Of a stretch of DNA of 64,000 nt, positions 672 through 59,460 are shown piece by piece. The position numbers and the translations under genes are program-made. Origin of the DNA: a virus; the IMG/VR virus record IMGVR_UViG_3300025921_000002, positions 1 to 64,000 of that record. One strand, given 5' to 3'. Positions within the stretch are counted from its first letter, which is position 1, and each line of letters starts with the position of its first letter. The notes below the pieces were generated by a model that saw only the letters and a program-made list of their open reading frames with translations, did not search any database and had not been told where the DNA came from.

Positions 672-965
672 ATGATGACAACAACTTACGGGGGCAACCC
701 ACGGTACTTGCACGAACTACCTGACGGAACATTTTTCGGTAGCCCGTTTGAATCGTTTTTACAGCTGGAATTAAATCAGCTATATCACGAAAAGCTACAG
801 CGATATAGTTCGGCTTTCATCGGCCCCGATTATATTAGGCTTACGGTCGGCGGTAGCGTGGATGAAGTTGTGGCTTCCATTCGGAATATAGTAGGTTCGG
901 ATTATATTGTACACGGAAGCAAGTATGGTTTCAATAAAAATATAACAATAAAAGTTAAGCCATGA
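672..965 (+). CDS. Hypothetical protein (probable start 672)
   Basis: ORF with A-rich leader before ATG 672; overlaps the next ORF by 4 nt. Confidence 0.6.
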   Translation: MMTTTYGGNPRYLHELPDGTFFGSPFESFLQLELNQLYHEKLQRYSSAFIGPDYIRLTVGGSVDEVVASIRNIVGSDYIVHGSKYGFNKNITIKVKP

Positions 966-17976: not shown

Positions 17977-18131
17977 AACGTTTTTTAATAAGTTTTTCTT
18001 ATGCTCTATTATTCGCAATTTTAGCCGTAATTCTATTTAAAAGATTCGATATGGGTCAATTTTTAATGGGATGGATGTCTTGTGTTGTTTTTTATACCGC
18101 GTATTCTGTAACTAAAGAGATTTTAGCATGA
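17973..18131 (+). CDS. 52-aa two-TM membrane protein (not in the ORF track)
   Basis: MKRFLISFSYALLFAILAVILFKRFDMGQFLMGWMSCVVFYTAYSVTKEILA; ATGA overlaps on both sides. Confidence 0.65.
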   Translation: MKRFLISFSYALLFAILAVILFKRFDMGQFLMGWMSCVVFYTAYSVTKEILA

Positions 18132-18826: not shown

Positions 18827-19095
18827 TAAAGCTAATTTTATTATGGCTCGTAGCTGGATTGCTAATGTCCATATTCAGTTGTAAGAAACAGAATGCTTGC
18901 GAGGTTGGCGACACCTGCTTGGTCAAGAAGCATATTTTCAATGATGGCGCTTATCAGCCACATTCATCATTAAAGGCTTTAAAAATCAACAAAAAATATA
19001 CCGAGTTGTGGGGTAAGACCTATTTAGATTGTTCTGATAGCCGGGACACCATTTGGAATTTTCCGCAGGAAGATTTATACAAAGTTGGAGAATGA
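18823..19095 (+). CDS. Putative lipoprotein
   Basis: Hydrophobic signal followed by the Bacteroidota-type lipobox IFS-C-KK. Confidence 0.55.
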   Translation: MIKLILLWLVAGLLMSIFSCKKQNACEVGDTCLVKKHIFNDGAYQPHSSLKALKINKKYTELWGKTYLDCSDSRDTIWNFPQEDLYKVGE

Positions 19096-19234
19096 GGAAT
19101 CAACAGGCAAGACTTAACTTTTTAATCCGGGAACGAGAAATCGTTTTAAGGGATAACCCTCAATTAAAAGACACACCCATAGTAATAATACATGATATGA
19201 GAATAGAAGCATTGGAAAGGTTCTTGGGGCTAAG

Positions 19235-20212
19235 ATGAGAAAGAAAATACTTTATTACCCGTTGGAGAAACGTGATTCGACCTCGTGGTGGCGGGTAGTG
19301 GGAATACTACCATTCATTTATCACGAAGATATTGATTTATGCGATATATCTGACACCAAAATATTTGATTGGACGGTTTTTTCAGGCGCTTCTGCATTAC
19401 TAATTCAGCGTCCATTTGCCCAAGACCATTTAACGGTCATTATGGGTGCTAAAAATTCAGGATTAAAAATAATTACTGACTATGACGATGATTTAACGTG
19501 TGTAGATATGTTCAACCCCACGCATCAACTTTATCAGCAATTTCAAAATACTTTAAAAGAATGTTTAAAGCTGTCAGATGAGGTTTGGGTTTCTACACAG
19601 GCTATTTTTGATAGCTACAAACAGTACAATTCTAATATACATATAATTCCTAATGCCCACAATGATTATTTTATGCCAGTTAGCAAAAAAAGGGCATTTA
19701 ATATGGATTCAAGGAAGGTTTTTTGGCGTGGAGGAATGTCACATTCGGCAGATGTGCTTGAAAAAGCCGATGAATTAATTAAAATTATTAATGAAAACCC
19801 TAACTGGGATTTTAATTTTTGTGGAAGCCGTTTTGAATATATTGAAATGCGTACAGGGGATAATCACAACATAGTTCAATATATGAGTATGTTAGAGTTT
19901 TTCAGGTATTTTAATAGTGAAAATCCCAACATTACTATTTTCCCATTAAGAACAACCCCGTTTAATAGGGCAAAAAGTAATATAAGCTGGATGGAGGCGA
20001 CTTACGCAGGCTCTTCGTTTTTTGGAAATACCGATTTACCTGAATTTAATCAAAGTGGCGTATACCCAATATCAACACTCCCCGATTATGTAGGCAAAGA
20101 CAGGCATGAAGCATTAGCTTATGCTAATAAAATTTCATGGGAACTTATTTGCGATACGCTTTTACTTTCCAACATAAACAAAATAAGACTGAACCGCCTA
20201 TTGGAGATATGA
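19235..20212 (+). CDS. GT-B (GT4-like) glycosyltransferase
   Basis: IQRP, DYDDD, D.VWVST, IPNA, W.GG.SH..D and PL...FNRAKSNI.W.E..YAG motifs. Confidence 0.85.
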   Translation: MRKKILYYPLEKRDSTSWWRVVGILPFIYHEDIDLCDISDTKIFDWTVFSGASALLIQRPFAQDHLTVIMGAKNSGLKIITDYDDDLTCVDMFNPTHQLYQQFQNTLKECLKLSDEVWVSTQAIFDSYKQYNSNIHIIPNAHNDYFMPVSKKRAFNMDSRKVFWRGGMSHSADVLEKADELIKIINENPNWDFNFCGSRFEYIEMRTGDNHNIVQYMSMLEFFRYFNSENPNITIFPLRTTPFNRAKSNISWMEATYAGSSFFGNTDLPEFNQSGVYPISTLPDYVGKDRHEALAYANKISWELICDTLLLSNINKIRLNRLLEI

Positions 20213-40775: not shown

Positions 40776-43700
40776 TGGGACAATTTAGCTGGACTCCACC
40801 ATCAACTGATGAACCTGTAAAGAAAACAGGATGGACTCCACCTGCTTCTGATATTCCTGTCGTTGAAAAAAAAAGTCCAGTTGGCAACGCTTCTGTGGCT
40901 ACCTCAACGCAGTCTGGCGATGGCTCAAGTCCTTCCCCTCTCCAACAAAGTCTTACTAATGCTATGAAAGCGTATAGCATTACGCATACGCCAAAAGAAG
41001 TTAGTGATGTTCAAAACACAGTAAGCCAACAAAAACAAGAGGATAAAATAGCAAGAACCCCCGATGCTGTAGTTGCCCATGAGAAATACATGGAAACACC
41101 CTTAGGTAAAACACAGGGCGCTTTTCAATATGTTGGCTCTAAAGCCTCTAAAGGTGCTTTACAGATAGCTAAAGGCGCTACGTGGCTATATAATCATACT
41201 TCGGCCAATCCAATTCAGGGAATGATTGATGAAGTAAGTAATCAGCATAAAGGACAGGAAGATTTTTTCAACAAAGCAGATAAGGCAACTAACTTAGGTT
41301 TGACAGCTACCGACCTGCAAAACATTGAAAGCAATAAAGGTATAGGTGCTTCTGCCTTACGCACCGCAGGAACGTTCGCCGAGATAGCGCCAACAATATT
41401 AGGCGGCGAAGCATCTGGCGCACCAAAACTTGCCTTTGCATTACAGGGATTAGGACAGGGAAAAGAAACAATGGATGCAGTTGACCCCGACCATAAAGTT
41501 AACCCTGCAATAAGGGACGGCTTTATAGCCCTGAATGGCGCTTTTAATGCCGCTTTAATGGGTGACGCAGCAGAAACTAACTTTGCTAAAATGCCTGCCG
41601 CATTACGCGGTAAAATAAGTTCAGCTTTAGCTATGGACGCTATTAAGCAAAATGGCGAAAAAGAAATAACTGGTGAACTTGTTGACCATACCGTAAAAGA
41701 CTTTGCCCATAACTTTTATAAATTAGGCACAGACTATGTACAAAAGGTAGCCCGTACAGGCGTTGACCTTTCAGCATTGCAAGCAGCAACTGGCTTAGCT
41801 AAATATGGTGTAAATAAAGCAAGTGGGCAGGAGGTTTTTAAAAATCCCGCAGGAGAAACCGCAGAAGGGGTAAGCAACGCTGTTTTACAGCAAGCACCTG
41901 TTTTTGGTGCAGCAGGTACAGTAGGTGACCTTTCAAAGTTAACTCCTTATTCATCTTTTAAAAACGAGGTTTTTGAGAATATTGTTAAAGACCCAAGCCA
42001 AACAGATGCTATTAAACAGGAAATAGCACAACATGGTCAGGAAAGAGGATGGACACCGGAAGAAATTCAGGCCACTAACGACCATATTGACCAAATAAAA
42101 ACAGTAGCGCAAAGACTCCCTGAAACTATTAAACCTGAAAAAAAATCAGATGCAGTTCAATTAGTACTTGATCGGGATGCCCTAAAGAAACAACTGGCTA
42201 ATGAAGTTGGTAAAAGAGGCGCGATGGATGAGTCTGTTAAGGATTTGCCTAATGCTCACGAAGAATGGCTTACTGACAAGATTGAGCAAGCGAACGATAA
42301 GTTAAGGGCTATGGCTACGGGCAAGCGTACAACTTATTCTAAAGGCGTTGGCGACGAGGAAGGAAAGTTCTTCAAAACTACCAACGGCGAAAAGGAAGAA
42401 ATAACTGAAAATAGGTATAACTTAGAGAAGTTAGAACGCACAGCAAATGAAAATACTAATGAACAAGAAAAAATAAACAACAATGAAAAAATCAGCAACC
42501 AAAGCGAACAAGAAAGCGGTGTTCAGCAAACCGCCAGCGGGGAAAAAGTGGCAGAACAGCCCGGCAACCCCACCGAAAGCGTCCAAGCCATCGGCAACGG
42601 TAGTAGCGAAAATGAAGAAAGGCTGTTAACAACAGGGGGTGAACAGCCCCCTTTAAAAGCCATTAAAAACAAGGTTGATGAAAAAAATGCTCAAGACCCG
42701 GATTTTTCAGAAAAGAATTATGACGCATGGGAAGAGCACCGAATGGGTTTGGAAAAACAAATATTCCATGAGCCAATAGATGAAAATTTACCCATTAGTG
42801 AAAATATTAAACTTTTAAATAAATCATTAGAACCTGAATTTGAAAAAATAAAACAAGTTATAGGCGATGATGAAGTTGCTGATAAGTATATTTCAGCTAT
42901 CCAACGTAACCCAAAACGTGCTGAAAAAATAAGGAATGAATTACCAAAAGATGTTCAGGGTAAACTATTCAACCGAATAAATGAGGATGATTTTGAAGAT
43001 AATAAACAGCAAACTGACGAATTTGAACATCTTAATTCAGAAAGCGATAGGGATATAACAGACGAAATGAAATTTTCATGGATAGGGAAAAAAATAACCT
43101 CTCCATCCGACATGCAAAAGCCATTTAATCGAGTTATTGTGAAGGATTTAATTTCCCAATTGGCTGACAAGGGTTATTCGCAGGAAGAAATAGTCCGAAG
43201 GGCTATGCAAGACCGTGTTAGTCGGGGCGATAATGCCGAGCATGTAACTGAATTGGTTAAGGCTGTTTTGGAAGAACACGGTAAAAAATCTGAACCACAA
43301 CAAAAACAAATAGAAGGAGGTAAAAATGCCACTAAAACCGGGAACATCGAAGAAAACAATCAGCAGCAACATCAAGGAACTGTTGGACAGCAACAGGGGG
43401 TCGAAGAAAATCGGCAACACCAAGAAGAACCTGTCGCTAAAAGCCAAACAGAAACAGGCGGTAGCAATAGCATTGAGCAAGGCGGCCAAGTCAAAAAAAC
43501 AATCCTAACTAAACGAGCCTACGAAGGAGAGATACAGCTCGAAGTAAAAAAGCATCTTGAAGAAAAGGGGCTGACACGTAAGTCATTCTCACAAGAGGAA
43601 CGCTCTAAACAAGCTACCGACTTTATTAATAAGTTTGGTGAAGAAGCGGCACAAAAAGCAGTTGAAGCAGGAGATATAGACGGTGGTATGGCCGCATCTG

Positions 43701-45898
43701 TATTAGCACAACTAAAAATAAAAACCGATAAGGCAATGTCCGATTTCCCCGAAGGAAGTGAGGAACGCGATGCTTTGGCTAAAAAGCAAGCCGACATAAT
43801 AAACCTCATGGAAAAAAAGGGTTATTTAGGCGGTGAATTTAACGGGCAGTTAGCGCATGAATACCAAAACGCTGAATTAGACTTTGCCAATGTTAAAAGA
43901 CAAGTTGAGGACTTAACTAAAAAGCCACTTACCGCAGGTCAGGAAAAGAAGATCAAAGAAATTACTTCTGAAAACGAAAAGCTAAAAGCACAATTACAGG
44001 AAGCCGAAGCTAAGCTAATTGAAGAAACTGACAAGGCTTTTGAATCTGGCAAAGAAGCCGCTAAAACAGAAACCAACGCTGAAAAAGCAAAAAGAATAGC
44101 TCAAAAACTAAGAGATAATGCCAAGCTAAATAAACCGGGCATTTTTTCTGCGGCAACACCTGCATCTTTAATTTGGGACGGTGCTATTGAAGTAACAGCC
44201 AAAAGCATTGAAGCAGGCGGTAAACTGGCTGACGCTATTGAAGCAGGTATCAAACATATCAAAGCAAGCGATTGGTATAAAAACCTGCCTGCAAACAAGA
44301 AAGAACTTGCTGAAAAAGAGTTTAAACGTGTTAATTACGAACATTCAGGCAGTACCGATGTAGAGGACTTGCAGGAAAGGTTTGTTGACAAAACCGACAA
44401 TAAGTTCACCCCCAACGAGGCTAAAGACATTTGGGGCTACATGAAGAAAACCTATATTGAAAATGGCACTTCATATCGGGATGCCCTTTCAAAAACAGCC
44501 GAAGATTTAGGGCTTTCTTGGAGGCAAGTTAGCGAAGCCGTAACCACGCCAAAGGTCAAAAGAATGTCGGATGAAATGTGGAAACGTCAATCCGAATACA
44601 CCCGAAACAGAACCGCTATTAAGAATTGGATAGATACTCAAACAGCTAATCCTTTTATGAAAGCCCTTAGAAAGGTTTCAGGTGCTTTTAGGGGGTTGGC
44701 TGTATTTGGTCACGGTGGCATATTTGTTGGCACACACGCGGGTACGACAGTATTTAATCCGTCTATGTGGAATAAAACAATACCTGCTTTTTTTAGAGGT
44801 TGGAAGTTTGCCTACGGAAACGAGGGTAATTATCAGCGTTCAATGGAAGAATTAAAAAATTCTCCAAATTATCTTATTGCTCAAAGAGCGGGTTTGAAAA
44901 ATAATCCTGAAAGAATAAATACAGAGGAATATCAAAAATCTCAACAATATTTAGGCAGAGCAGGATTAGCCGGAGAAAGAGGATTTAATGCCATAAAAGT
45001 GCTTCGGCAGGACTTATTTGACTATCATTTCAATAAACTGTCACCTGCGGAAAGAGATGACCCGGAAGTAGCTAAGAGCATAGCTAAATTAGTTAATTTG
45101 GCTACAGGAGCGACTAACTTAAAAATACCATCATGGGTACAAGAAGTTTCATTTGCCGGGGGTATGGAGGGTTCAAGATGGGAAAAGTGGCTAAGAAGCC
45201 CCGCAGAGGCCGCAGATATTGCCATGAAAGCCATATTCACGCCTGACAAAGCAACTACCGAGGAGCGTATTTTTGCAAAAGTATGGGCAAGACGGGTTGG
45301 TGAGCAATTGGCCACATTCAGTGCGCTACTTTTAGCTAATTCTGCTATTCAAAATACTTTAAATCCTAAAAATCCTGTAAATTATACAAACCCCGATAAG
45401 CCGGACTTTATGAAATTTAAGTTTGGAGATAGGACTATTGACCCAACATCGGGCATGTTAGGTGTAGGAAAGTTTATATATAAAGTAGGTAAATTACCAT
45501 TCCAAAGCGAAAAAGAATTACATGGTGATAAAAAGATTGCCGCTTTAGGTAAGGATTTGCTTCAATACGGTAGAGGAAAACTTGCTCCATTTTATGGCAC
45601 GGTAGCCGATGTATTTACAGGAAGGGATTTTAACGGAAACCCGCTACCATATAGTAAGGAAAAACCGGGTAAAGGGCATCATAAATTAGGTTATGGAGAG
45701 TACGCTTTAAGTAAAGCCCCGTTGCCGGGAGCGGAAGCTGCAAATGTTACTTATAAATCAGCCGAAGAACATGGAGCGCATGTCCCTACATTGGATGATG
45801 TGATAAAAGGATTCTGGTCAGGGGCTATTTCAGGGGCAACAGGATTTAGGGTTGGCGAATACGATGCCAACTCCCCTGAAAATAAAAAGAAAAAATAA
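40775..45898 (+). CDS. Large internal virion/ejection protein (1707 aa)
   Basis: Size, Ala/Gly-rich then helical composition, position after the smaller ejection genes. Confidence 0.7.
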   Translation: MGQFSWTPPSTDEPVKKTGWTPPASDIPVVEKKSPVGNASVATSTQSGDGSSPSPLQQSLTNAMKAYSITHTPKEVSDVQNTVSQQKQEDKIARTPDAVVAHEKYMETPLGKTQGAFQYVGSKASKGALQIAKGATWLYNHTSANPIQGMIDEVSNQHKGQEDFFNKADKATNLGLTATDLQNIESNKGIGASALRTAGTFAEIAPTILGGEASGAPKLAFALQGLGQGKETMDAVDPDHKVNPAIRDGFIALNGAFNAALMGDAAETNFAKMPAALRGKISSALAMDAIKQNGEKEITGELVDHTVKDFAHNFYKLGTDYVQKVARTGVDLSALQAATGLAKYGVNKASGQEVFKNPAGETAEGVSNAVLQQAPVFGAAGTVGDLSKLTPYSSFKNEVFENIVKDPSQTDAIKQEIAQHGQERGWTPEEIQATNDHIDQIKTVAQRLPETIKPEKKSDAVQLVLDRDALKKQLANEVGKRGAMDESVKDLPNAHEEWLTDKIEQANDKLRAMATGKRTTYSKGVGDEEGKFFKTTNGEKEEITENRYNLEKLERTANENTNEQEKINNNEKISNQSEQESGVQQTASGEKVAEQPGNPTESVQAIGNGSSENEERLLTTGGEQPPLKAIKNKVDEKNAQDPDFSEKNYDAWEEHRMGLEKQIFHEPIDENLPISENIKLLNKSLEPEFEKIKQVIGDDEVADKYISAIQRNPKRAEKIRNELPKDVQGKLFNRINEDDFEDNKQQTDEFEHLNSESDRDITDEMKFSWIGKKITSPSDMQKPFNRVIVKDLISQLADKGYSQEEIVRRAMQDRVSRGDNAEHVTELVKAVLEEHGKKSEPQQKQIEGGKNATKTGNIEENNQQQHQGTVGQQQGVEENRQHQEEPVAKSQTETGGSNSIEQGGQVKKTILTKRAYEGEIQLEVKKHLEEKGLTRKSFSQEERSKQATDFINKFGEEAAQKAVEAGDIDGGMAASVLAQLKIKTDKAMSDFPEGSEERDALAKKQADIINLMEKKGYLGGEFNGQLAHEYQNAELDFANVKRQVEDLTKKPLTAGQEKKIKEITSENEKLKAQLQEAEAKLIEETDKAFESGKEAAKTETNAEKAKRIAQKLRDNAKLNKPGIFSAATPASLIWDGAIEVTAKSIEAGGKLADAIEAGIKHIKASDWYKNLPANKKELAEKEFKRVNYEHSGSTDVEDLQERFVDKTDNKFTPNEAKDIWGYMKKTYIENGTSYRDALSKTAEDLGLSWRQVSEAVTTPKVKRMSDEMWKRQSEYTRNRTAIKNWIDTQTANPFMKALRKVSGAFRGLAVFGHGGIFVGTHAGTTVFNPSMWNKTIPAFFRGWKFAYGNEGNYQRSMEELKNSPNYLIAQRAGLKNNPERINTEEYQKSQQYLGRAGLAGERGFNAIKVLRQDLFDYHFNKLSPAERDDPEVAKSIAKLVNLATGATNLKIPSWVQEVSFAGGMEGSRWEKWLRSPAEAADIAMKAIFTPDKATTEERIFAKVWARRVGEQLATFSALLLANSAIQNTLNPKNPVNYTNPDKPDFMKFKFGDRTIDPTSGMLGVGKFIYKVGKLPFQSEKELHGDKKIAALGKDLLQYGRGKLAPFYGTVADVFTGRDFNGNPLPYSKEKPGKGHHKLGYGEYALSKAPLPGAEAANVTYKSAEEHGAHVPTLDDVIKGFWSGAISGATGFRVGEYDANSPENKKKK
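42483..42629 (+). CDS. Nested +1-frame 48-aa Lys-rich protein
   Basis: MKKSATKANKKAVFSKPPAGKKWQNSPATPPKASKPSATVVAKMKKGC, preceded by the A-rich leader aataaacaaca. Confidence 0.5.
   Translation: MKKSATKANKKAVFSKPPAGKKWQNSPATPPKASKPSATVVAKMKKGC
43326..43508 (+). CDS. Nested +1-frame 60-aa Lys-rich protein (MPLK.G.S.KTIS.NI.E...QKQAVAIALS.A family)
   Basis: Recognisable small phage protein pattern; GAAGGAGG-TAAAA-ATG upstream. Confidence 0.75.
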   Translation: MPLKPGTSKKTISSNIKELLDSNRGSKKIGNTKKNLSLKAKQKQAVAIALSKAAKSKKQS

Positions 45899-47920: not shown

Positions 47921-50900
47921 ATGAGAAAATGGTTACTGCTTTTTCTGCTTTTACCTTTAAAAATATTTGCCGCAACATGGTTCGTCAGTCCGACCGGGAA
48001 TGATGGCAATAGTGGCACAAGTTCCGGCTCGCCATTCCTCACGCTCGCAAGAGTTCAAACGGCCTACCATGCAGGCGATATTATAGAATTACAATGCAAT
48101 GGGACTTATATAGGTACTTTAACCATAAGCGCGGCATCACAAGTAATTAAATATGGGTCGGGGACTCAACCATTAATAAGTGGCTTTGAAACATTAAGTG
48201 GATGGGCAAGCGTTGGGACTAACCTTTGGCGTGTACACGACGCTAATTTAGGCGCTACTGTTAAGGTTTTCACTATAAACGGCACTCAATACGCACCGGG
48301 ACGTTTTCCTAAAGTCGGTTATTCAATTTACACGGCCTCAACTGCCAACACTTCAATAACAGCCGCAGGATTAGCCGGGACATGGGGAGCAAACGCACAG
48401 GTAGTTATTCGTAAGAACCATTTTAACATGACTACCTATCCTATCGTTTCGGTAGTTGGAAACGTAATAACTTATAGTGGTGGCAGTGGCGATGTCCCAA
48501 CACCGGGTTCAGGCGCTTTCATTCAAAATAGCTTAAATGCTTTAAGTCAAAACGGGGACTGGTATTATGATGGCGCAGGTAATATAACCCTTTATTGGGT
48601 AGGAACACCACCAGTAAACATTCAAGCGTCAAGATACGACAGGTTAATAAATATAACAAGCGGAAGCGGCGCTATTGTAAATGGGATTAACCTGACAGGT
48701 GCAAATGCCTATGCTATTTACGGCAACAACACTACATCGGCTCAAATAGTCAATTGTACCATTACTCAAAGTGACATTGGTGTTTATCTGAATAACAACA
48801 CCTCATCAATTATAAATGGCTGTATTTTCAACCAAATTAATGGAAATTCCATCACTTTAGCTACCTCAAACTCTAATACTATTAACAATACGACGGTAAC
48901 TACTTCAGGCATGATACCGGGGATTGCTACGGAATATTCGGGTATAAGAGTAATACCAAACACAGCAAGAAACACAATCATCACCAATAGCACAGTAAGT
49001 AACACGGGTTACAATGGATATTTTGTTCAAGGGCAAGTAACCATGCAAAATGATATAGGTCACGACTGCCTGAATTTACTTGATGATGGCGCGATTTATT
49101 ATTTTGACGTCGGCCAAACGGCTGTTACAATCCCCGCTTCTGTGGTTAGTAATTGCATAGGGTACAATGCAAATGGCGCACCCGTAGGAACAAACGATGG
49201 CAAGAATGAAGCAGTTGTCTTTTACGCAGACGATAACACCAATCACTTTACGTTCTCACATTGCGTAGGTTATAATGCGGGGCAGTACATTTTTTTCAGC
49301 CATAACAATCAAAATGTGACGTGGAGTAATTGCTTAGGATATAACGCAGGCATTTCCACAATGGCTATGATACACGACAGATTAGGTGGTAAGCTATCCA
49401 ACATTACTTTAGCAAACAACCAATTTATAAACACCATAGGGCAAATCCTGATACTGCGCTCAATTTGGACAGACTCAACTCCGGCAGACTTAACCAATTG
49501 GGGCGTTGCAACGAATAATGCGTACGGCAACAACGTAACCGTAGCCAACCCCTTTCAAACCCAACTATACAGCCAACCCGTACAAAACTTAACGTTCGCA
49601 GGTTGGAAAACAGCCACAGGGCAAGACGGTTCAAGTTCGTACCAAACTATTCCAAGCCCCTCGGCTTTGTACCCTAATCCCACAAGCACAAGTACCACTA
49701 CTACTCTTTCAGCAGTTTATAAAGACCTATTAGGTAACTCTTATAGTGGGGTGACAAGTATAGCCGCGTATAGTGCTTTGTATTTGTACTATTTTGGGGC
49801 TATCCCGCCCGTTGCACCTTCAATTTCGTATAGCCCAAATAATTATACGTTTTACGTTAATGACCCCATACCAAGCCCTATTACCCCGGTTAACGTTGGC
49901 GGAGCAATGACAAGTGCAGCGATTAACACTCCACAACCATCGGGCATTTTATTTAACACCACAACCGCAGTTTTTACAGGAACGCCACTTGCTTTAAGCC
50001 CCTCACATACTTATACCGTGAACGGAATTAACGCCGGAGGTTCAAGTTCAACACCAATCACGTTTGCTATTATCGACCACCCTCCAGTAGTATCTTACAA
50101 TAATAGCCCCCAAACAGCTACTATTAACGTTGCTATGACTCCGATGAGTCCTACACTTGTGAGTGGTGGGGCGGTTACAAATTATACTTCGGCTACGGCA
50201 CTTCCGGCAGGCGTTACTATAAATTCAGTTTCCGGTGTTATCAGTGGGGTGCCTACGGTTTTGATACCCCTGACCACATTCAATATAAATTGCTCGAACT
50301 CGGGGGGTGTGTATGTAGTTCCCATTCAACTCGGTGTTACCAATCCTGCCCCCGCTTTGCCTCACGTGACTTATAGTCCATCCACTGTTGTATTGCCTAT
50401 TAATATTTCAATGGTACCATTAGTGCCAACATCGACTGGTGGCGTAGTGGCAAGCTATTCAGCCGCTTCATTACCTGTGGGCGTTTCGCTGAATACAAGT
50501 ACCGGAGTTGTCAGCGGTACCCCTACTACTTTAACTTCGCCAACCGTATACCCAATCATTGCCCATAATGTAACAGGTGATTATACAACTAACATAACTT
50601 TGTCGGTAATCAACACGACCCCCAACCCTCCTGTGCCATCATATAACCCAGCTACGGTAGTTTTTCAGTTAGGACATATAATTACACCAATGGTTCCTTT
50701 CAATAGTTCTGACCCCGCTACAAGTTGGTCTATTGCGCCTGCTGTGAGTGCCGGATTATCCTTTAGTTTAACTACAGGAATTTTAACAGGAACCCCAAGT
50801 GCTTTATCACCTGTTACTTCTTATACGGTTCGGGCAGATAACACAGGCGGCCACAATAATACGACCATCACTTTATCAGTAGTCAATCCACCTCCTACGC

Positions 50901-50953
50901 CAGTTATACGTGTACGCACCTCGAAGCATCCAATATTTATCAATAGGCATTAA
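47921..50953 (+). CDS. Sec-signal protein with a right-handed beta-helix (pectate-lyase-like) and about four putative Ig repeats; depolymerase/adhesin-like
   Basis: MRKWLLLFLLLPLKIFA|ATWFVSPTGNDGNSGTS.GSPF.T; DDGAIY; repeated LP.G.S.N..TG..SGTPT. Confidence 0.85.
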   Translation: MRKWLLLFLLLPLKIFAATWFVSPTGNDGNSGTSSGSPFLTLARVQTAYHAGDIIELQCNGTYIGTLTISAASQVIKYGSGTQPLISGFETLSGWASVGTNLWRVHDANLGATVKVFTINGTQYAPGRFPKVGYSIYTASTANTSITAAGLAGTWGANAQVVIRKNHFNMTTYPIVSVVGNVITYSGGSGDVPTPGSGAFIQNSLNALSQNGDWYYDGAGNITLYWVGTPPVNIQASRYDRLINITSGSGAIVNGINLTGANAYAIYGNNTTSAQIVNCTITQSDIGVYLNNNTSSIINGCIFNQINGNSITLATSNSNTINNTTVTTSGMIPGIATEYSGIRVIPNTARNTIITNSTVSNTGYNGYFVQGQVTMQNDIGHDCLNLLDDGAIYYFDVGQTAVTIPASVVSNCIGYNANGAPVGTNDGKNEAVVFYADDNTNHFTFSHCVGYNAGQYIFFSHNNQNVTWSNCLGYNAGISTMAMIHDRLGGKLSNITLANNQFINTIGQILILRSIWTDSTPADLTNWGVATNNAYGNNVTVANPFQTQLYSQPVQNLTFAGWKTATGQDGSSSYQTIPSPSALYPNPTSTSTTTTLSAVYKDLLGNSYSGVTSIAAYSALYLYYFGAIPPVAPSISYSPNNYTFYVNDPIPSPITPVNVGGAMTSAAINTPQPSGILFNTTTAVFTGTPLALSPSHTYTVNGINAGGSSSTPITFAIIDHPPVVSYNNSPQTATINVAMTPMSPTLVSGGAVTNYTSATALPAGVTINSVSGVISGVPTVLIPLTTFNINCSNSGGVYVVPIQLGVTNPAPALPHVTYSPSTVVLPINISMVPLVPTSTGGVVASYSAASLPVGVSLNTSTGVVSGTPTTLTSPTVYPIIAHNVTGDYTTNITLSVINTTPNPPVPSYNPATVVFQLGHIITPMVPFNSSDPATSWSIAPAVSAGLSFSLTTGILTGTPSALSPVTSYTVRADNTGGHNNTTITLSVVNPPPTPVIRVRTSKHPIFINRH

Positions 50954-51437: not shown

Positions 51438-51767
51438 TTAAATGATTCCATTTCGTCTAACAATTCCGCATAGTTTGTTAACTTCATCGTTTTGGTTAAC
51501 CGAATGAGATTTATCAAATTCAGATTCATACAAACCGGGAATATCATAGGTGACGAATTTATTCAAATCCATTTTTAGCCACGAACATATTTTAAATAAG
51601 GTATCAACCTCGAATGTTTTTTTGGACAGTACCCGCGATAATGTAGGGGTTGATATGCCGATTTCCTTAGAGAAAAACCTAAGCCCTAATTTCTTATTAT
51701 TAGCGTAGTTAGCTAAAAACATCTTATCATTAATGGACTTAATGAAAAACCACTGATTAAATTTCAT
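51438..51767 (-). CDS. XRE HTH regulator
   Basis: LGLRFFSKEIGISTPTLSRV......VDTLFKICSWL; TATCTTTG 3 nt before the ATG. Confidence 0.8.
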   Translation of the reverse strand: MKFNQWFFIKSINDKMFLANYANNKKLGLRFFSKEIGISTPTLSRVLSKKTFEVDTLFKICSWLKMDLNKFVTYDIPGLYESEFDKSHSVNQNDEVNKLCGIVRRNGII

Positions 51768-51847
51768 AATCAAAGATACAGTTATCCAATATCAATTGCA
51801 ACTTTTTTATTAAATAAATATTTTTAACTTTACGCAACAATTCAGCT

Positions 51848-54800
51848 ATGCGTAAATACTTATTACTGCTTCTGTTCCTTTTCCCCCTAATCTGTTTTGC
51901 GCAAGCAATCACACAGCAGGTAAAATCTCCAGCATCAGGTAGTTCAGCGGGTAATTCCTTTTTCCAATGGTACTCCGGCAACTACACTGGCTATCTTGGT
52001 GTTCCTTTCGGTACTAATGCAGTAACCAACAGGGCAACTGACATGAACGGTCTGATATATGTTCAGCTTGCCGACAGTACATTGCAATTCCGCTACAATG
52101 GCACATGGATACCCATTGGAAGCGGTGGAGGTGCTACAAGTGCTATCTACTTTTCGACCCAATTTGCGGGGTTAGGCACAATAGTTTCGCCCATCATTCC
52201 GAATGCAGACTCAATATTATTAGCGAACCAAATTACCAAACAGAATGTTTATAGTTATTTCAGAAAAGTAAGAACAGATACCGCCTTTTTTGGTCAGACA
52301 AGCCCCTCCTTAATCACAGGTGGACTACAGGCCGGAGTACTATCCTTACCCACCGCTACAAGCGGAACTAAAGGCGGATTAGGTGTACAGCTACTCGCTC
52401 AACCCACAGGCAACACCTCAATAGGCTACAACTCTATTATTTCAAGCGTTGAAACAGACACTTTAGAGGGCAGAAACTTTACCAACTATATGAATGCGTT
52501 CACTGGCGCAGTCAAGCACAGAGGTACAGGAATAGTAACTAACGCGAGTGATTTTGTAGCCCAAAGCCCCTACATTTCAAGCGGCGGAACAATAGCTAAC
52601 CAGTCAGGTATCGTTATACAGCCTCAAAAAATAACAGGGGTAACTAACGGGTATAGTATTTTACAATTAGGTACAACCGATAAGAACATCTTTAACGGGC
52701 CGATACACGCCTTTAACGTCCCCGTAGATTCATCCCCTGACACAGTTTTAACCCTTGTAAACGGTAAGATTTCAAGAGCAGCTTATATAGGTGGTACAAG
52801 CGGTAATGCTATCATTTCAGGGCTTGCCATGAGCTTATTCATCAATGGAAGCGGGGATACCTCTATAGTTGTCAGCCCCGGAACATGGCGAATTAACAAC
52901 ACCATCTATTCTAAAGCTACTTCATCTTTTTTCCCTATTTTACCAAGACCGATAGCAGGTGAGTTCTTTTACGAAACAGCCTACGCCACTACTTCTAATA
53001 CGATTTCTATCATAGCCGGAACATCAAGCCCCACACCAATAGAACCTGCTATACCTGCTAATACCGTTAGGGTAGGTTCGGCTTTAGTGAGCAATACGGG
53101 GATAGTGATAACTCCGACTACGCAAAGTACAATATACAACAATAACGACAGTTTAACAAGCAATAGAACGGTTTTTTTTAGCAATCATTATTTACAAATG
53201 GGCGATACGCTAAATAATAAAGCTCTATTTATAATCCAACCTATTGGAAATTCAATAGCTATGCTGGATTATAATTTAACCTCCGCAGAAAATGGACAAA
53301 TTGGTATTAGTCAAAATGCATCATCTATTGTTTATCAAGACACTTTGGGCAATAATAGCCAAGCAATAACTACAACGTCATTCTCATCGATAGCGTCTCA
53401 ATCTCTGGGGCAGGAATTTTCACTTTCATTAAATGGCGGCGTATCGGTTTCCCATGATGCTATCTTTGCTGATAGCTATAATTTTAGAGGCATTGAATAT
53501 GACCATGCCACCCACTACACTCCTAACGACTATACCCTGTTAAGCAAATACATGGCTGATAGCCTTTATTCAGGTGGTGTTAACATTTACAATTCAGACG
53601 GTACGTTAACCGGGGCAAGAACAGTTTCCGGTGGTGGTAATACCCTTCAATTTAGTTTACCAATAGAAGATTTTTCAGGAACAGAAACTTCAAGTCTAAA
53701 TCTTAATGGCACATCCACAAGCTTAATAGCCAGTTATGGTACAGGGGACACTTATAATTTATCCTCAACTATATCGGGAACAAATACCTCATTAGTTATA
53801 AATAGGATAAATTCAGCAAATGTAACTGGCTTTGAAATAAATAACACAGGTACAGGGATTATTGTTAAAGACGAGATAGGGGCTATAGGCCTTGTAGCTA
53901 ACACTTCGATTGATACCGCCAATATGACATCCAATCCTAAAGCATACGTTACGAGTGAGTGGGTGGCGGGACGTAGTGTGGGTGCTTTCCTTCCCCTAAC
54001 TTTCCCAACAGATCAGCACATAGACGGGGCACATCATTCACTGGTTTTTGAAACATTTACATCCGATAACGTAAATGAAGGAGTTTTAGCCATTGATTCA
54101 AGTGGATTTTATTTAGGGGCTTATACCTCCGGTAATCAGGTCATTAGAACAGGCCATTATACCGCTACAGGGAGCGGTTTAGATGTTGTTAATGATTTAG
54201 GCACCGGATTTAAATATAGCAATGCCGCTGACTATGCGACTATAGGTACGACTGATACATTAGGCATGGCCCCTGTTGGATGGGTTCAGCGATACGTGGC
54301 AGCGCATGCAGGAACTGGAACTGTAACCTCTGTATCCGGAACAACCAATAGAATAACCTCTACAGGCGGAGCAACCCCTGTAATTGATATATCTTCAACA
54401 TTTGAGGCTCTTTTAGGTAAGGTTGCAAATCCCTTATCTCAATTCGCCTCAACCACATCTGCTCAATTGGCGGGGGTGTTGAGTGATGAAAGCGGAACCG
54501 GGGTAGTGGCTTATACCACCAATCCGGTATTTACAACACCGAATTTAGGGACGCCATCGGCTGTTACTTTAACTAATGGGATGGGGCTGCCTGCTACCGG
54601 GCTGACAGGGACGCTTCAAGTTGCTCAATTCCCGGCGCTAACCGGAGATGTTACAACGTCAGCTGGCTCGCTGGCAACAGCTATCGGCGCAGGGAAAGTA
54701 ACCAACACGATGCTTGCCGGGAGTATATCCGCTTCAAAATTGGTTGGGACGGATATAACAACGGTCGGCACATTAGCGGCTGGTTCGATACCCTATTCGC

Positions 54801-55651
54801 TATTGACCGGAACGCCAACAATACCTACCGGAGCCAATCCAACAGCAAGCGCAGGTTTATCGGCGGTAAATGGTTTAGCGGCTACATTTATGCGCAGCGA
54901 TGGGGCGCCCGCTATAGATCAAAGCATATCCCCCACATGGACAGGGTTTCATACATGGAGTAAATCCAATATCGGAACGGGAGTTGGAACAGCCTTAGCT
55001 AACGTACTCGGGCTATGGAAAAATCCGACAGCCGCATTGGTCGGAGCAGTTCAAAATTCGCCTTTTAGCGGGTGGGAGGCCCAAGATTGGAATACATCTG
55101 CCGGAGGTTCATCGCAGGCGGTCGATATTTTGGTGCGCGCAGAAGCTGTGCAGGGAACAAACGCAAGTGCCGATCTGGCATTCTATTTAGCCGTTAATGG
55201 TGGTAATCCCGCTGCTACTGGCGTTAAGATTGGTGGAACGGGGAGAATCACTGCTCCTGCCTATACGATCAGTAACGCACCATCAACATCTGCATCTACG
55301 TATGATATTTTAACACGCAATACCTCTACTGGAGTGCAAGAGAAAATAACGTCAGCCACACTTTTACCCGCAGCTTCGGTTTCATCCGCCGGAACTCTAA
55401 CGCTGGCTCATGGCATTGATTATGTATTTACAGGCACCACAGCAACCTATACATTGCCTGCCATATCGGCAACAACCACTGGCAGGGCATACCAGATAAC
55501 AATAAAAAACAGAGGCAGTGGTTTGTTGACGGTTAACTCGGCAGCGGGTGGTAATGATATTTATACGACATCAGCCGTATCTACTTTTACTATATCAGCA
55601 GGTAGTTCTGCTACGCTAATGCCGGATGGCACATATTTTAACCTTGAGTGA
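51848..55651 (+). CDS. Mosaic tail-fibre-like protein with a Sec signal peptide
   Basis: MRKYLLLLLFLFPLICFA|Q; fibre shaft motifs NIYNSDGTLTGARTV, GTGTVTSVSGTTNRITSTGG, SDE.GTG...F.TP.LGTPS and LTGDVT; C-terminal T.TLPA..GR.Y..IKN.G.G.LTV. Confidence 0.8.
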   Translation: MRKYLLLLLFLFPLICFAQAITQQVKSPASGSSAGNSFFQWYSGNYTGYLGVPFGTNAVTNRATDMNGLIYVQLADSTLQFRYNGTWIPIGSGGGATSAIYFSTQFAGLGTIVSPIIPNADSILLANQITKQNVYSYFRKVRTDTAFFGQTSPSLITGGLQAGVLSLPTATSGTKGGLGVQLLAQPTGNTSIGYNSIISSVETDTLEGRNFTNYMNAFTGAVKHRGTGIVTNASDFVAQSPYISSGGTIANQSGIVIQPQKITGVTNGYSILQLGTTDKNIFNGPIHAFNVPVDSSPDTVLTLVNGKISRAAYIGGTSGNAIISGLAMSLFINGSGDTSIVVSPGTWRINNTIYSKATSSFFPILPRPIAGEFFYETAYATTSNTISIIAGTSSPTPIEPAIPANTVRVGSALVSNTGIVITPTTQSTIYNNNDSLTSNRTVFFSNHYLQMGDTLNNKALFIIQPIGNSIAMLDYNLTSAENGQIGISQNASSIVYQDTLGNNSQAITTTSFSSIASQSLGQEFSLSLNGGVSVSHDAIFADSYNFRGIEYDHATHYTPNDYTLLSKYMADSLYSGGVNIYNSDGTLTGARTVSGGGNTLQFSLPIEDFSGTETSSLNLNGTSTSLIASYGTGDTYNLSSTISGTNTSLVINRINSANVTGFEINNTGTGIIVKDEIGAIGLVANTSIDTANMTSNPKAYVTSEWVAGRSVGAFLPLTFPTDQHIDGAHHSLVFETFTSDNVNEGVLAIDSSGFYLGAYTSGNQVIRTGHYTATGSGLDVVNDLGTGFKYSNAADYATIGTTDTLGMAPVGWVQRYVAAHAGTGTVTSVSGTTNRITSTGGATPVIDISSTFEALLGKVANPLSQFASTTSAQLAGVLSDESGTGVVAYTTNPVFTTPNLGTPSAVTLTNGMGLPATGLTGTLQVAQFPALTGDVTTSAGSLATAIGAGKVTNTMLAGSISASKLVGTDITTVGTLAAGSIPYSLLTGTPTIPTGANPTASAGLSAVNGLAATFMRSDGAPAIDQSISPTWTGFHTWSKSNIGTGVGTALANVLGLWKNPTAALVGAVQNSPFSGWEAQDWNTSAGGSSQAVDILVRAEAVQGTNASADLAFYLAVNGGNPAATGVKIGGTGRITAPAYTISNAPSTSASTYDILTRNTSTGVQEKITSATLLPAASVSSAGTLTLAHGIDYVFTGTTATYTLPAISATTTGRAYQITIKNRGSGLLTVNSAAGGNDIYTTSAVSTFTISAGSSATLMPDGTYFNLE

Positions 55652-55692: not shown

Positions 55693-56142
55693 ATGCAACC
55701 GACCGAACAGGAACTTAAAACAGTCAGGATAACCGCAAGATTATTTTTCTCGGTTAGCGTTATATTTGCTGTCTGCCTTGCATTTGTTTTCGCCAAGTCA
55801 GCAGAATATAATCCAGCCGTAAAATACTTTACGTCGGCGGGGGCTATCAACCAGCCTGTACGGGTTTGGGATGGCATTATAACAGTCACAACTGGCACGG
55901 CGCAATCGGTTGATATATCAAGTGCCGGATTTACCTCTATCAATTCTGTAGTTGTTACACCAGCTAATAACACAGCATCAACAACATCGATGCCAATAGT
56001 TTCAATAAAATCGTACACGGCTACCTCGGTCGTTTTTAATACTTTGGTTAGCAACACTGCCGGAATCGGTATTTTGGTAGGGCTTATTGTCCCATCATCA
56101 ACCACTGGAATGCAGGTTCATGTGCACGTAGACGGATGGTAA
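55693..56142 (+). CDS. Signal/anchor helix plus a small beta-rich fibre-tip-like domain
   Basis: Hydrophobic residues ~17-34, then a Ser/Thr-rich domain ending VHVDGW. Confidence 0.6.
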   Translation: MQPTEQELKTVRITARLFFSVSVIFAVCLAFVFAKSAEYNPAVKYFTSAGAINQPVRVWDGIITVTTGTAQSVDISSAGFTSINSVVVTPANNTASTTSMPIVSIKSYTATSVVFNTLVSNTAGIGILVGLIVPSSTTGMQVHVHVDGW

Positions 56143-56160
56143 ATTTAAACTCAACACGAT

Positions 56161-56385
56161 ATGGAAACAGCAATTGATTACCTTAAAAGAATATATGACG
56201 AACAGCCTGACTTATTTGATGCTTTGGCCATAGCTACTATTAAACGTCATATAGGCATTGAGCCCCTAACAGGCGGATGCAATCCCGACAACTGCCACGG
56301 TACGGTTGGATGCAGCAAATCAACATCACATGGCGCCTGCTCATGTGTCGGAAATGTATGTACATGGGTTCCTGATTTGGGATGA
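56161..56385 (+). CDS. Peptide precursor-like ORF: 39-aa leader, Gly-Gly, 35-aa six-Cys core
   Basis: ...EPLTGG|CNPDNCHGTVGCSKSTSHGACSCVGNVCTWVPDLG. Confidence 0.65.
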   Translation: METAIDYLKRIYDEQPDLFDALAIATIKRHIGIEPLTGGCNPDNCHGTVGCSKSTSHGACSCVGNVCTWVPDLG

Positions 56386-56762
56386 AAGCCATTGTATTTA
56401 TAACATGCTGGACTATTTATCTTTTCGGGTTTGGTTTCTATATTTTTGCCGAAGTTTTTACAGATTGGCCTGTTTTTCAGGTTAGGTGCATTTTATGGTG
56501 TTCTTTAATGGAACTTTTTATCGCTATGGCTGTTTTAGAGAACATACCGAATAGATGGTTAGCCGATACATTTTTATATAAACAGTTTATTCTTATTGCG
56601 TGGTTTACTTTAATTGTTACAGCAGGATTTGTCATGCTGAACGGGAATGGATTAGTACAAAATCCCTACTTGAATTTAGGGTGTTTTTACTGCGCGAATT
56701 TGTTATTTAGTTTCATTATCTTAAGCACCGGAATTAAAAATGGAATTTTCAAAGAGCATTAG
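56382..56762 (+). CDS. Four-TM membrane protein
   Basis: Four hydrophobic segments; ATGA-coupled to the peptide gene. Confidence 0.8.
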   Translation: MKAIVFITCWTIYLFGFGFYIFAEVFTDWPVFQVRCILWCSLMELFIAMAVLENIPNRWLADTFLYKQFILIAWFTLIVTAGFVMLNGNGLVQNPYLNLGCFYCANLLFSFIILSTGIKNGIFKEH

Positions 56763-56763
56763 A

Positions 56764-57093
56764 ATGACACAACCCCAAACTTATAATCTCGACTGGATGG
56801 CCTTAGGGGAATGGGCAATATCAGTAGTCGGCATATTAATCGCTTTTTTCGGGTTTACAAACAAGTGGTTTAAAGATAGGGTTGATGCCCGTGAAAAATA
56901 CGCACAACAGCAAAAGCAGGAAAAGCAAGATTTTATTGAAAAGGTAGTTATTGCTACCGTATCTGCAACGCTTAACAGTACCCTCGGTGGCATAAAAGAA
57001 GATATTGCGACCCTATTTAAATATCGTGAAGATGACAGAACCCATAGTGACGGTCAATTCAGGGAATTGATGAAAGAGATAAGAAAGCCGTAA
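56764..57093 (+). CDS. Single-TM coiled-coil protein, holin-like (probable start 56764)
   Basis: N-terminal TM and a charged helical C-terminus. Confidence 0.55.
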   Translation: MTQPQTYNLDWMALGEWAISVVGILIAFFGFTNKWFKDRVDAREKYAQQQKQEKQDFIEKVVIATVSATLNSTLGGIKEDIATLFKYREDDRTHSDGQFRELMKEIRKP

Positions 57094-57102
57094 CTTTGCC
57101 GA

Positions 57103-57414
57103 ATGCTTGAAATATTCAAAGAATATGGTTTACCATTAGGGATATTAATTGTACTTGCCTATTGGTATGCTAAAAAAGATAAACAGCACCGCGAGGAACG
57201 TGAAATTTTGGAACGTACCCGAAAGGAAGAACGCGAAACCTTAGAAAAACTTCACCGCGATGAACGGGAAAGTGTGGAGCGGTCACACAAAGAAGAACGA
57301 GATACTCTTCGTAAGACCGTAGAGGGCATCGCAGATAATTCAAACAAAGCGTTTAACAACTCCACCCAAGCCTTAACAGAGTTATCTACTCTTGTTAAAT
57401 CTATGAAGAAATGA
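57103..57414 (+). CDS. BhlA/UviB-like single-TM holin-like protein with four 11-aa repeats
   Basis: EYGLPLGILIVLAYW, then a charged coiled coil. Confidence 0.55.
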   Translation: MLEIFKEYGLPLGILIVLAYWYAKKDKQHREEREILERTRKEERETLEKLHRDERESVERSHKEERDTLRKTVEGIADNSNKAFNNSTQALTELSTLVKSMKK

Positions 57415-58886: not shown

Positions 58887-58963
58887 ACACCAAAGATAAA
58901 AACAATTATTGAATTAAACAAGTGTTTTTCAAAGTATTTGGAGAATTGTTTTATATTTACAAC

Positions 58964-59260
58964 ATGACATCCGAACATTTAGAAATGCTTGCCAGTCAAA
59001 TCATGTTTTGGGGCATAACTGTTTTCTCCTGTATGATATGGTGGGAATTTTATAAGTCAAGGGATGGCAGGATGAGGGTGCTTGTCCTCTATCTATTCGG
59101 AAGTAAAACGTTTATTTACGGGGGTGCGGGACTCTTTTTTCTCCTTTATGATTTCGGCTATTTCCGTGACTTCCCTCAACTCTATCTTAGGCTTATTTTA
59201 AACGCCCCCATGATAGTTATTATGGTAGAATGGTACAGATATATCAAGTATAAAAAATAA
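58964..59260 (+). CDS. Three-TM membrane protein (probable start 58964)
   Basis: TATATTTA-4 nt-ATG; hydrophobic helices. Confidence 0.7.
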   Translation: MTSEHLEMLASQIMFWGITVFSCMIWWEFYKSRDGRMRVLVLYLFGSKTFIYGGAGLFFLLYDFGYFRDFPQLYLRLILNAPMIVIMVEWYRYIKYKK

Positions 59261-59460
59261 TGGCTTATATCGCTTTATTTGGCTTTGGTTTTTTAATGGG
59301 ATTAATTGCTCCGCATCATAAACTATACATTAAAATAGCTGACTTATACCAAAAGGCCACTAAGAAATTTATAAAGGCTATGAGGCGACGCGGAAAAAAG
59401 ATTAACCGATTAATGGTTGAACGTAATGAATTAAAACAAAGACTTGGTGAGCCTGTTTAA
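59260..59460 (+). CDS. Single-TM basic coiled-coil protein
   Basis: Hydrophobic N-terminus and basic tail. Confidence 0.6.
   Translation: MAYIALFGFGFLMGLIAPHHKLYIKIADLYQKATKKFIKAMRRRGKKINRLMVERNELKQRLGEPV

Follow-up and report, generated by a model that had tools for sequence, protein, structure and literature searches.

A conserved cysteine-rich small protein and an overlapping four-helix membrane protein gene recur together in phage genomes and may have a role in lysis

The stretch of DNA analysed here (64,000 nucleotides, called the window) comprises bases 1–64000 of the 74,996-bp IMG/VR record IMGVR_UViG_3300025921_000002, a viral genome labelled G000 with a CheckV completeness of 100%. 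Its + strand carries two overlapping genes, which are the subject of this work. The first codes for a 74-amino-acid (aa) cysteine-rich protein and the second for a membrane protein with four transmembrane (TM) segments, the 4-TM protein. The features of this pair, derived from open reading frames (ORFs), alignments and AlphaFold2 (AF2) models, are as follows.

56161..56385, + strand: 74-aa cysteine-rich small protein (ORF, homologues from HMMER and profile searches, AF2); a new family, of which 22 members were found
56161..56250, + strand: its N-terminal two-helix domain, residues 1–30, with helices 4–14 and 16–30 (AF2 and alignment)
56251..56277, + strand: variable linker rich in Gly, Pro, Asp and Thr, residues 31–39, ending in GG (tally of the 22 members)
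56278..56382, + strand: 35-residue cysteine-stabilised mini-domain with C40, C45, C51, C60, C62 and C67 and the motif W69-V-P (alignment, AF2)
56382..56762, + strand: 126-aa four-helix inner-membrane protein, ATGA-coupled to the gene before it (hydropathy, AF2) and predicted to be N-in/C-in
56661..56669, + strand: (N/D)-P-Y motif, N94-P95-Y96, in the loop between helices 3 and 4 (alignment), predicted from the charge distribution to face the periplasm

The first 39 residues of the 74-aa protein end in TGG and are followed by a core of the pattern C-x4-C-x5-C-x8-C-x-C-x4-C-TWVPDLG. The ORF anatomy, the six-cysteine core and the terminal WVPDLG had been given in a preliminary description of this DNA and were confirmed at 56161–56385. 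With an alignment of 22 rows as input, AF2 returned one compact, confident model with a predicted local distance difference test score (pLDDT) of 89.5 and a predicted template modelling score (pTM) of 0.78, the latter being high enough to suggest that the N-terminal domain and the core pack together. All 39 N-terminal residues had been described as a helical leader; a helical structure is indeed predicted for residues 4–30, but residues 31–44 are modelled as coil. The linker is the lowest-confidence block of the model. The mini-domain contains a beta-hairpin (residues 58–63/66–71), and the Y7-L8 motif of the N-terminal domain is nearly invariant in the family alignment.

The protein is acidic (9 D/E versus 5 K/R), its core is rich in G, T, N and P, and it has neither a signal peptide nor a TM segment. 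A reading of L-T-G-G-C as a lipoprotein signal was rejected because the hydrophobic signal segment is absent. No match to the 74-aa protein was found in Pfam, PHROGs or NCBIfam (E ≤ 10) or in PADLOC, and a sequence search of the Protein Data Bank (PDB) gave chance matches only. Structural comparisons with Foldseek (PDB and BFVD) and VIA-align (48,161 chains) returned nothing above E 2 or Z 3.1, although such an absence of structural relatives is no proof of a new fold. The ESM Atlas gave nothing usable for this protein or for the 4-TM protein.

Relatives of the protein are rare. A word-index search of 5.8 billion clusters retrieved only the query, with the 74-aa protein and with the 4-TM protein alike. 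A full HMMER search of 1.84 billion representatives gave 12 small relatives (67–105 aa, E 1e-17 to 1.5e-4); eight large repetitive extracellular proteins (HYR, Big_9, cadherin-like) that also matched were excluded as compositional or uncertain. Seven further members came from a profile search and two from metagenome contigs. In the alignment of 22 sequences, G50, C51, G58, C60, C67 and W69 are invariant, and Y7, C45, T55 and P71 are nearly so. On the evidence of this alignment the pattern is well beyond chance and the 74-aa gene is real. Its codons also show purifying selection, as do those of the 4-TM gene. Between the near-identical contigs L089 and L066, six codons of the peptide gene differ synonymously and one non-synonymously (four and one, respectively, in the 4-TM gene), and a variant from soil has two changes in the peptide gene (56229 and 56238), both in third positions and synonymous by codon reading.

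A degenerate DNA pattern for the core found one true locus in IMG/VR, L002, where scans with the peptide or the 4-TM protein found nothing and two spacing variants of the pattern gave nothing or chance matches only. Among metagenome stretches, six hits of the degenerate pattern were confirmed as family members by the hidden Markov model (HMM). In 185,579 bacterial species genomes the same pattern, which misses members with other cysteine spacings, hit 54 stretches, all of them chance matches in high-GC reading frames. No DNA or protein match to the locus was found among GenBank phages. The family and its linkage to a 4-TM gene are new and described in no library.

The linkage of the peptide gene to the 4-TM gene is the strongest result of the analysis. 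In the window, the TGA stop of the peptide gene (56383–56385) overlaps the ATG of the 4-TM gene (56382–56384), confirming the ATGA coupling that had been noted before. The 4-TM protein has four hydrophobic segments, which AF2 models as helices 2–26, 31–54, 64–88 and 95–119 (pLDDT 76.5). An overlapping multi-helix membrane gene follows the peptide gene in the window, in L002 (part of a second phage genome, G001), in L089/L066, in L030 and in L039. A synteny search had been proposed as a check on the pair, and a peptide gene followed by a 4-TM gene is present in five phage lineages, with the two genes adjacent and overlapping in 5/5 lineages with visible flanks; the members known only from Logan/ENA (P0003–P0006, P0010, P0011, P0014, P0020 and P0024–P0029) lie outside this count. 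The similarity among the 4-TM homologues themselves is weak but detectable (pairwise E 5e-5 and 6e-5), and the (N/D)-P-Y motif of the loop before the last helix is common to them. A relationship of the 4-TM protein to DsbB/VKOR was considered and rejected, the C-x-x-C motif (C-F-Y-C) being not conserved in relatives. A complex prediction for the 4-TM protein and the peptide scored 0.00 in a run that had no controls; it yields no verdict and counts neither way on binding.

Two of the five lineages are nearly unrelated genomes. G001 (53.6 kb, 34.5% G+C) is a different type of phage with a tape-measure-like gene. When all ORFs of G000 and G001 were compared by BLASTP (380 x 250), the peptide pair was the sole clear match at E < 1e-3 (4.6e-10). 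In the relaxed list, a pair of fibre-like proteins ranked third (0.003) and the 4-TM pair seventh (0.01). The G000 member of the fibre-like pair is the 1267-aa protein encoded upstream of the peptide gene; its G001 partner, 1247 aa long, is the product of the gene immediately before the peptide gene of that phage. The G000 terminase, portal and whole fibre retrieved nothing from G001. These comparisons suggest that a block of fibre-like, peptide and 4-TM genes is common to genomes otherwise without shared content. The lineages differ in what separates the fibre and peptide genes and in what follows the 4-TM gene.

The preliminary description had interpreted the two glycines in front of the first cysteine as a double-glycine leader for export by a C39 peptidase transporter, a claim that does not survive comparison within the family. 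GG immediately precedes the first cysteine in six of the 22 members. In 14, GG or GS lies no more than two residues away from the core; in the other eight, none of GG, GS and GA is present near it. The alignment thus suggests that GG is a part of the variable-length linker and not a conserved cleavage site. In C39 substrates, GG, GA or GS follows a helix that presents Val or Leu at −4, Leu at −7, Leu at −12 and Glu at −8 (PMC6363468). The window protein fits this rule with Leu −4 and Ile −7 and deviates from it with Pro −5, Gly −8 and Lys −12. A Gly-Gly before a cysteine-rich tail in a single sequence is insufficient to call a secreted peptide; here, the family alignment removed that reading.

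In L039 the two domains are split between two proteins. The cysteine core is a 49-aa ORF of its own (1043–1192) with a short hydrophilic N-terminus, and the N-terminal domain is found on a 105-aa ORF just upstream (705–1022), which has an 11-residue match to residues 8–18 and then A-L-A-I-A-T and G-I-x-P-L, the match being interrupted by a hydrophobic insertion of 30 residues. The gapped local score of the window N-terminal domain against this ORF is 59.3, compared to 23.4 ± 4.5 for shuffled sequences, of which 0/3000 reach it, and the ORF is the best of 2108 background ORFs. It was not retrieved by the N-domain HMM, and the match is seen only with the N-terminal domain of the window protein itself. 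Since the N-terminal domain in L039 is on a separate protein, it provides no leader in cis for cleavage and export of the core. The insertion in L039:705-1022(+), which reads I-G-V-I-I-V-G-G-S-L-V... and lies between two helices, could be a membrane anchor; it hints that the N-terminal domain acts at the membrane.

The machinery expected of a GG-leader system was not found in the phages. C39 peptidase (PF03412) is absent from the complete G000 genome and from G001 (the same search gave matches in 7 control genomes), the radical S-adenosylmethionine (SAM) family PF04055 is absent from both, and the GG-motif, bacteriocin, SCIFF and ranthipeptide families of NCBIfam do not match the peptide at E ≤ 10. 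A phage-borne precedent for double-glycine processing by a C39/PCAT transporter does exist in the SPbeta prophage, which encodes the glycocin sublancin and its immunity protein SunI. Like sublancin and other C39 peptides, the window copy has an N-terminal helix, GG before a cysteine-rich part and an adjacent membrane-protein gene. Unlike them, its GG is not conserved in the family, its cluster has no transporter, thiol-disulfide oxidoreductase or modifying enzyme, its N-terminal domain is separable, and the phages carrying it look virulent.

The core cysteines number six in sixteen members, four in five and eight in one, and are never odd. The five 4-Cys members lose C1 and C5 together, P0026 has gained two adjacent cysteines, and C2, C3, C4 and C6 are kept in every member. 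Even parity is the pattern of disulfide-bonded domains and hints at one here, although perhaps two evolutionary events account for all of it; the four universal cysteines could also form a Zn(Cys)4 site. Of these two states of the core, the disulfide-bonded one appears slightly the more probable. Lacking both a signal peptide and a TM segment, the protein would be either cytoplasmic and metal-bound or oxidised only upon lysis. The core differs from an inhibitor cystine knot in the length of its third loop (8 residues versus the usual 0–5). Cysteine pairing is not readable from the model, and the joint loss of C1 and C5 in five members does not fit the knottin pairing C1–C4, C2–C5, C3–C6.

G000 (39.6% G+C) is a tailed phage; its large terminase (8.9e-72) and portal (1e-79) match PHROG families. 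The terminase shares ~25% identity with its counterparts in podophages of Flavobacterium and Cellulophaga, and the host is therefore probably a member of Bacteroidota. DNA of G000 is present in rhizosphere and soil metagenome runs. One soil run contains a 95–99% variant of the locus and a freshwater run contains fragments. A rhizosphere metatranscriptome contains short contigs identical to 55985–56323 and 56582–56988 of the window, which indicate presence only: an RNA library as their source is no proof of transcription. The cysteine-rich/4-TM locus closes a long series of structural genes on the + strand and lies ahead of a strand switch. Upstream of it are genes for two large proteins of fibre-like type, 1010 and 1267 aa in length, and for an anchored protein of 149 aa, with a gap of 18 nt in front of the peptide gene; downstream are two genes for proteins with single hydrophobic segments. 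The closest neighbours are listed below.

51848..55651, + strand: 1267-aa fibre-like protein with a signal-peptide-like N-terminal segment (ORF; part of the syntenic trio of fibre, peptide and 4-TM genes)
55693..56142, + strand: protein of 149 aa, anchored by an N-terminal helix and containing a beta-rich domain, encoded after the fibre gene and before the peptide gene (ORF, sequence)
56764..57093, + strand: 109-aa protein with one TM segment and an 80-aa highly charged helical tail (ORF, sequence)
57103..57414, + strand: 103-aa protein with a hydrophobic N-terminus (residues 9–23) and charged E/R/K repeats, the last gene of the + strand block

The 149-aa protein is not conserved among relatives; the ORFs that occupy its place in L030 and L039 are not significantly similar to it. 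Neither an integrase nor a resolvase was found in G000 or G001, and the cysteine-rich/4-TM module thus appears to belong to the late genes of virulent phages. A scan of the locus for sigma-70 promoters and terminators was uninformative, Bacteroidota promoters being outside its models.

The ATG of the 109-aa gene (56764) lies 1 nt after the 4-TM stop codon (56760–56762), which confirms the spacing noted before. An in-frame ATG at 56740 would give a 117-aa form, with the TM segment at about residues 21–37; the start at 56764 (M-T-Q-P-Q) matches that of the homologue in L089 (M-E-Q-P-Q). The protein has weak matches to holin and lipoprotein families of PHROGs (E 6e-4 to 8e-4) and is weakly similar to the 85-aa protein in the same position in L089 (E 0.013). 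The 103-aa protein had been labelled BhlA-like, and this label is dropped here: neither BhlA nor any other holin family of Pfam matches it at E ≤ 1, and its best Pfam matches are unrelated and far below cut-offs. Among PHROGs, it comes closest to a family of unknown function (1.6e-4). The architecture of both proteins (the 109/117-aa and the 103-aa) is compatible with that of an i-spanin, with an N-terminal TM domain and a coiled coil, for which the only hint at the family level is a match of the 103-aa protein to the Rz-like spanin family phrog_1327 (E 0.02). As for an o-spanin, no ORF of at least 30 aa with a lipobox is present in any frame of 56740–57414.

Single-TM charged proteins are also encoded behind the 4-TM gene in G001 and in L089/L066. 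In L089/L066, the first of them starts with M-x-Q-P-Q and is followed by a tail-anchored coiled-coil protein. L089 has an HNH homing endonuclease gene (L089:1072-1581(+); HNH_3, 3.2e-5) inserted between the 85-aa and coiled-coil genes, which is absent from the near-identical L066. The 85-aa gene is far more diverged between the two (17 non-synonymous codons) than the adjoining peptide and 4-TM genes.

Some relatives show the link to lysis genes that the preliminary description had proposed for the pair. The 4-TM gene of L039 shares an ATGA with the gene of an NlpC/P60-type lysin (phrog_1259, 5e-29; Pfam NLPC_P60, 0.0029), and the position directly before the lysin gene is the classic one of a holin. 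In G001 the fibre, peptide and 4-TM genes are followed by genes for two single-TM proteins, by two genes of unknown type and then by the gene of a GH25 lysin (7.6e-31), located 2.2 kb downstream on the same strand; a TM protein and a lipoprotein are encoded behind it. These two products behind the lysin are a 127-aa protein with an N-terminal TM segment and a 179-aa protein with a lipobox (L-V-G-C) at 17189–19982 (L002:1787–3398), a candidate spanin-like pair.

The overlap with the 4-TM gene, the lysins of L039 and G001, the single-TM genes behind the pair, the missing export signal, the single fold and the unconserved GG together lead to a tentative interpretation, the best supported of those considered and held here as possible: that the two genes are a mobile late-gene pair of a holin-like or lysis-timing 4-TM protein and a dedicated, uncleaved, soluble cysteine-rich partner. 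The 74-aa product would be a small folded protein (a two-helix N-terminal domain, a flexible linker and a cysteine-held mini-domain) and not a precursor peptide. It would be made without an export signal and in translational coupling with the four-helix inner-membrane protein. The module and its upstream fibre-like gene may have travelled among, or persisted in, virulent phages of Bacteroidota type that are not otherwise related, and would always occupy the junction of tail-fibre and lysis genes, where the single-TM charged proteins downstream could be further membrane proteins of lysis (holin, antiholin or i-spanin-like). Both the lysis role and a physical binding of the two proteins are inferred. 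If the pair does serve lysis, the partner would more probably act in the cytoplasm as a Zn-bound regulator; that it exits through the membrane lesion and oxidises to a disulfide form is a somewhat less probable alternative. The preliminary description is thus supported in its linked pair and, among relatives, in its connection to lysis, but not in the export of a GG-leader peptide.

Several observations weigh against a lysis pair. In G000 itself, the only recognisable endolysin (PF00959, 3.8e-22) is encoded 13 kb away, at genome positions 69430–69858, outside the window. A 96-aa two-TM protein is encoded 86 nt behind it (G000 69430–70234; L147:5430–6234), and the two are likely a canonical endolysin–holin pair; G000 therefore need not rely on the 4-TM protein for a holin. 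No holin family of Pfam or PHROGs matches the 4-TM protein or three of its relatives, and its short, weakly charged C-terminal tail (9–11 residues with 2 K/R and 1 D/E) is unlike that of typical holins. The even number of cysteines hints at extracytoplasmic disulfides, which the protein could not reach before lysis without an export signal. The fibre-like gene that accompanies the pair would be just as consistent with a role linked to the fibre. Finally, an order of fibre genes followed by lysis genes is common in phages, which makes the position at this junction weak evidence.

The pair probably represents a variation on lysis or late-membrane gene sets already known from phages. The lysis cassette of phage P2 has the order Y-K-lysA-lysB/lysC, in which LysA is a putative antiholin with four TM domains and is followed by the i-spanin LysB. 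The P2 lysA-lysB arrangement resembles that of the window, where a 4-TM gene is followed by one or more single-TM coiled-coil genes; no homology is detectable, however, P2 has no cysteine-rich gene before lysA, and the G000 cluster has no o-spanin lipoprotein. In T4, the holin T is controlled through protein–protein contact by the antiholins RI, which is periplasmic, and RIII, which is cytoplasmic and 82 aa long (PMC8385771, PMC11413866). Similar to RIII, the cysteine-rich protein is small and soluble and has no export signal; its dedication to a lysis membrane protein is what is proposed here. Unlike the T4 proteins, to which no sequence or fold similarity was found, the window pair combines four helices with tiny loops (T has one TM segment and a large periplasmic domain) and a cysteine cluster that RIII does not have.

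An unlikely but coherent alternative is that the cysteine-rich protein is an accessory of the tail-fibre cassette: a fibre assembly factor, a virion tip or adhesin subunit, or a receptor-masking factor. The 4-TM protein would then be a co-travelling membrane factor (e.g. for superinfection exclusion) or the product of the first gene of the next module. Fibre genes often move with a small downstream gene for a chaperone or adhesin (Mu S/U, P2 H/G, T2 gp37/gp38), and receptor-masking genes adjoin those of receptor-binding proteins (T5 llp/oad). The fibre-like gene directly precedes the peptide gene in G001, one variable ORF separates them in G000, and L030 has a fibre-like fragment and one ORF upstream. 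As the fibre-like proteins are each other's best match across unrelated genomes, the fibre, peptide and 4-TM genes look like one cassette, and the even cysteine count would suit a protein that ends up outside the cell. The C-termini of the G000 and G001 fibres are unrelated, however, and the cysteine core is strongly conserved, the opposite of what is expected for a receptor-specific adhesin or chaperone. Moreover, the constant adjacency and overlap is with the 4-TM gene, while the gene between fibre and peptide varies, and in L039 the pair is coupled to a lysin. Compared to Mu U, P2 G and T2 gp38, the 74-aa protein is likewise encoded by a small gene that lies behind, and travels with, a large fibre-like gene, but it is much smaller (known fibre chaperones are two to three times larger), shows no similarity to them, keeps its core despite differing fibre C-termini and is always accompanied by the 4-TM gene.

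Rather more doubtful is an envelope effector released by the holin. Here, the cysteine-rich protein would be kept in the cytoplasm with its 4-TM partner, enter the periplasm in the manner of canonical endolysins when the membrane protein or proteins trigger, become locked by disulfides and act on the outer membrane or the cell wall in place of spanins; in a variant of this scheme, it would be a redox-switched lysis-timing factor. It would account for a protein that has no export signal and yet an even number of cysteines in 22/22 members, a parity kept through both the loss of C1 and C5 and the double gain in P0026. The G/T/N/P-rich core, the position in or near lysis genes in L039 and G001 and the failure to find an o-spanin candidate with a lipobox in the G000 cluster also agree with it. 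About 15% of phages have no spanins, and a precedent is 'disruptin', gp28 of phiKT, a small outer-membrane lysis effector (bioRxiv 10.1101/515445). Like the cysteine-rich protein, gp28 has no export signal; it is the product of a lysis gene in a phage with no recognisable spanins and reaches the envelope after triggering (bioRxiv 10.1101/515445). Unlike disruptin, which is cationic, amphipathic and cysteine-free, the protein described here is acidic and folded. In addition, the lipoprotein encoded behind the G001 lysin could be part of a spanin, and the four universal cysteines could equally be a cytoplasmic Zn(Cys)4 site.

It is improbable that the pair is a late membrane module unrelated to both lysis and fibres, with a function in superinfection exclusion or the protection of progeny and with the cysteine-rich protein as a cytoplasmic Zn adaptor. 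Small phage membrane proteins with exclusion roles are common (T4 Imm and Sp, P22 SieA), and the distance of the G000 cluster from the endolysin, the universal C2, C3, C4 and C6 and the missing export signal would all be explained. Exclusion genes are usually expressed early or from prophages, however, whereas this pair ends a late structural operon, from which only the 18-nt gap separates it, and is coupled to a lysin gene in L039.

The weakest alternative, a GG-leader precursor exported by a C39 ATP-binding cassette (ABC) transporter of the host to act as a secreted signal or bacteriocin, with the 4-TM protein as its sensor or immunity protein, is very improbable: Bacteroidota do carry C39 transporters (Bacteroides thetaiotaomicron gave control matches) and a small membrane-protein gene behind the peptide gene is in the usual place of an immunity gene, but the linker of the family, the poor fit to the recognition positions, the split in L039, the single fold and the missing C39, radical-SAM, integrase and resolvase genes oppose it, and the pattern scan, which misses members with other cysteine spacings, found no copy in bacterial species genomes. 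The same scan and the missing integrase and resolvase genes make the bacteriocin–immunity pair suggested earlier unlikely.

The pair deserves attention as an unannotated set of two genes that is under purifying selection, appears to move between unrelated phages and sits at the fibre/lysis junction. To our knowledge, how phages of Bacteroidota break the three-layered envelope of their hosts is poorly known, and their spanins are mostly not recognisable. If the cysteine-rich protein were a regulator or effector of lysis, it would represent a new class of component in phage lysis; were it to serve the fibre, it would stand out among fibre accessories by its unusually small size.

The neighbourhood of the pair has several other features. 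The fibre-like proteins (window 47921–50953 and 51848–55651; L002:5824-9567(-)) begin with signal-peptide-like segments (M-R-K-Y-L-L-L...F-A-Q and M-K-K-L-I-F-L-L...K-A-Q), and an export signal on tail-fibre-like proteins is odd, given their cytoplasmic assembly. G000 and G001, although unrelated, encode large fibre-like proteins that have the motif P-T-W-T-G-F-H-T in common. A moron-like gene for a 111-aa helix-turn-helix-like protein is wedged between both fibre-like genes of the window on the opposite strand, 51438–51773(-). Runs of glycosyltransferase and methyltransferase-like genes are apparent near the structural genes in the window (15101–20212) and in G001 (42606–45721), the latter judged by eye from N-terminal sequences only. 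G001 also encodes, in its early region (735–1409(-)), an unrelated cysteine-rich protein, a 224-aa ORF with long C-S-S-C/C-x-x-C repeats. Four − strand genes away from the cysteine-rich locus, the window has a second pair of membrane genes (58922–59460, +), without a family match, which encode a 112-aa multi-helix protein and a 66-aa basic protein with a single TM segment. These two genes share one base, as the start of the 66-aa gene is the last base of the stop codon of the 112-aa gene.

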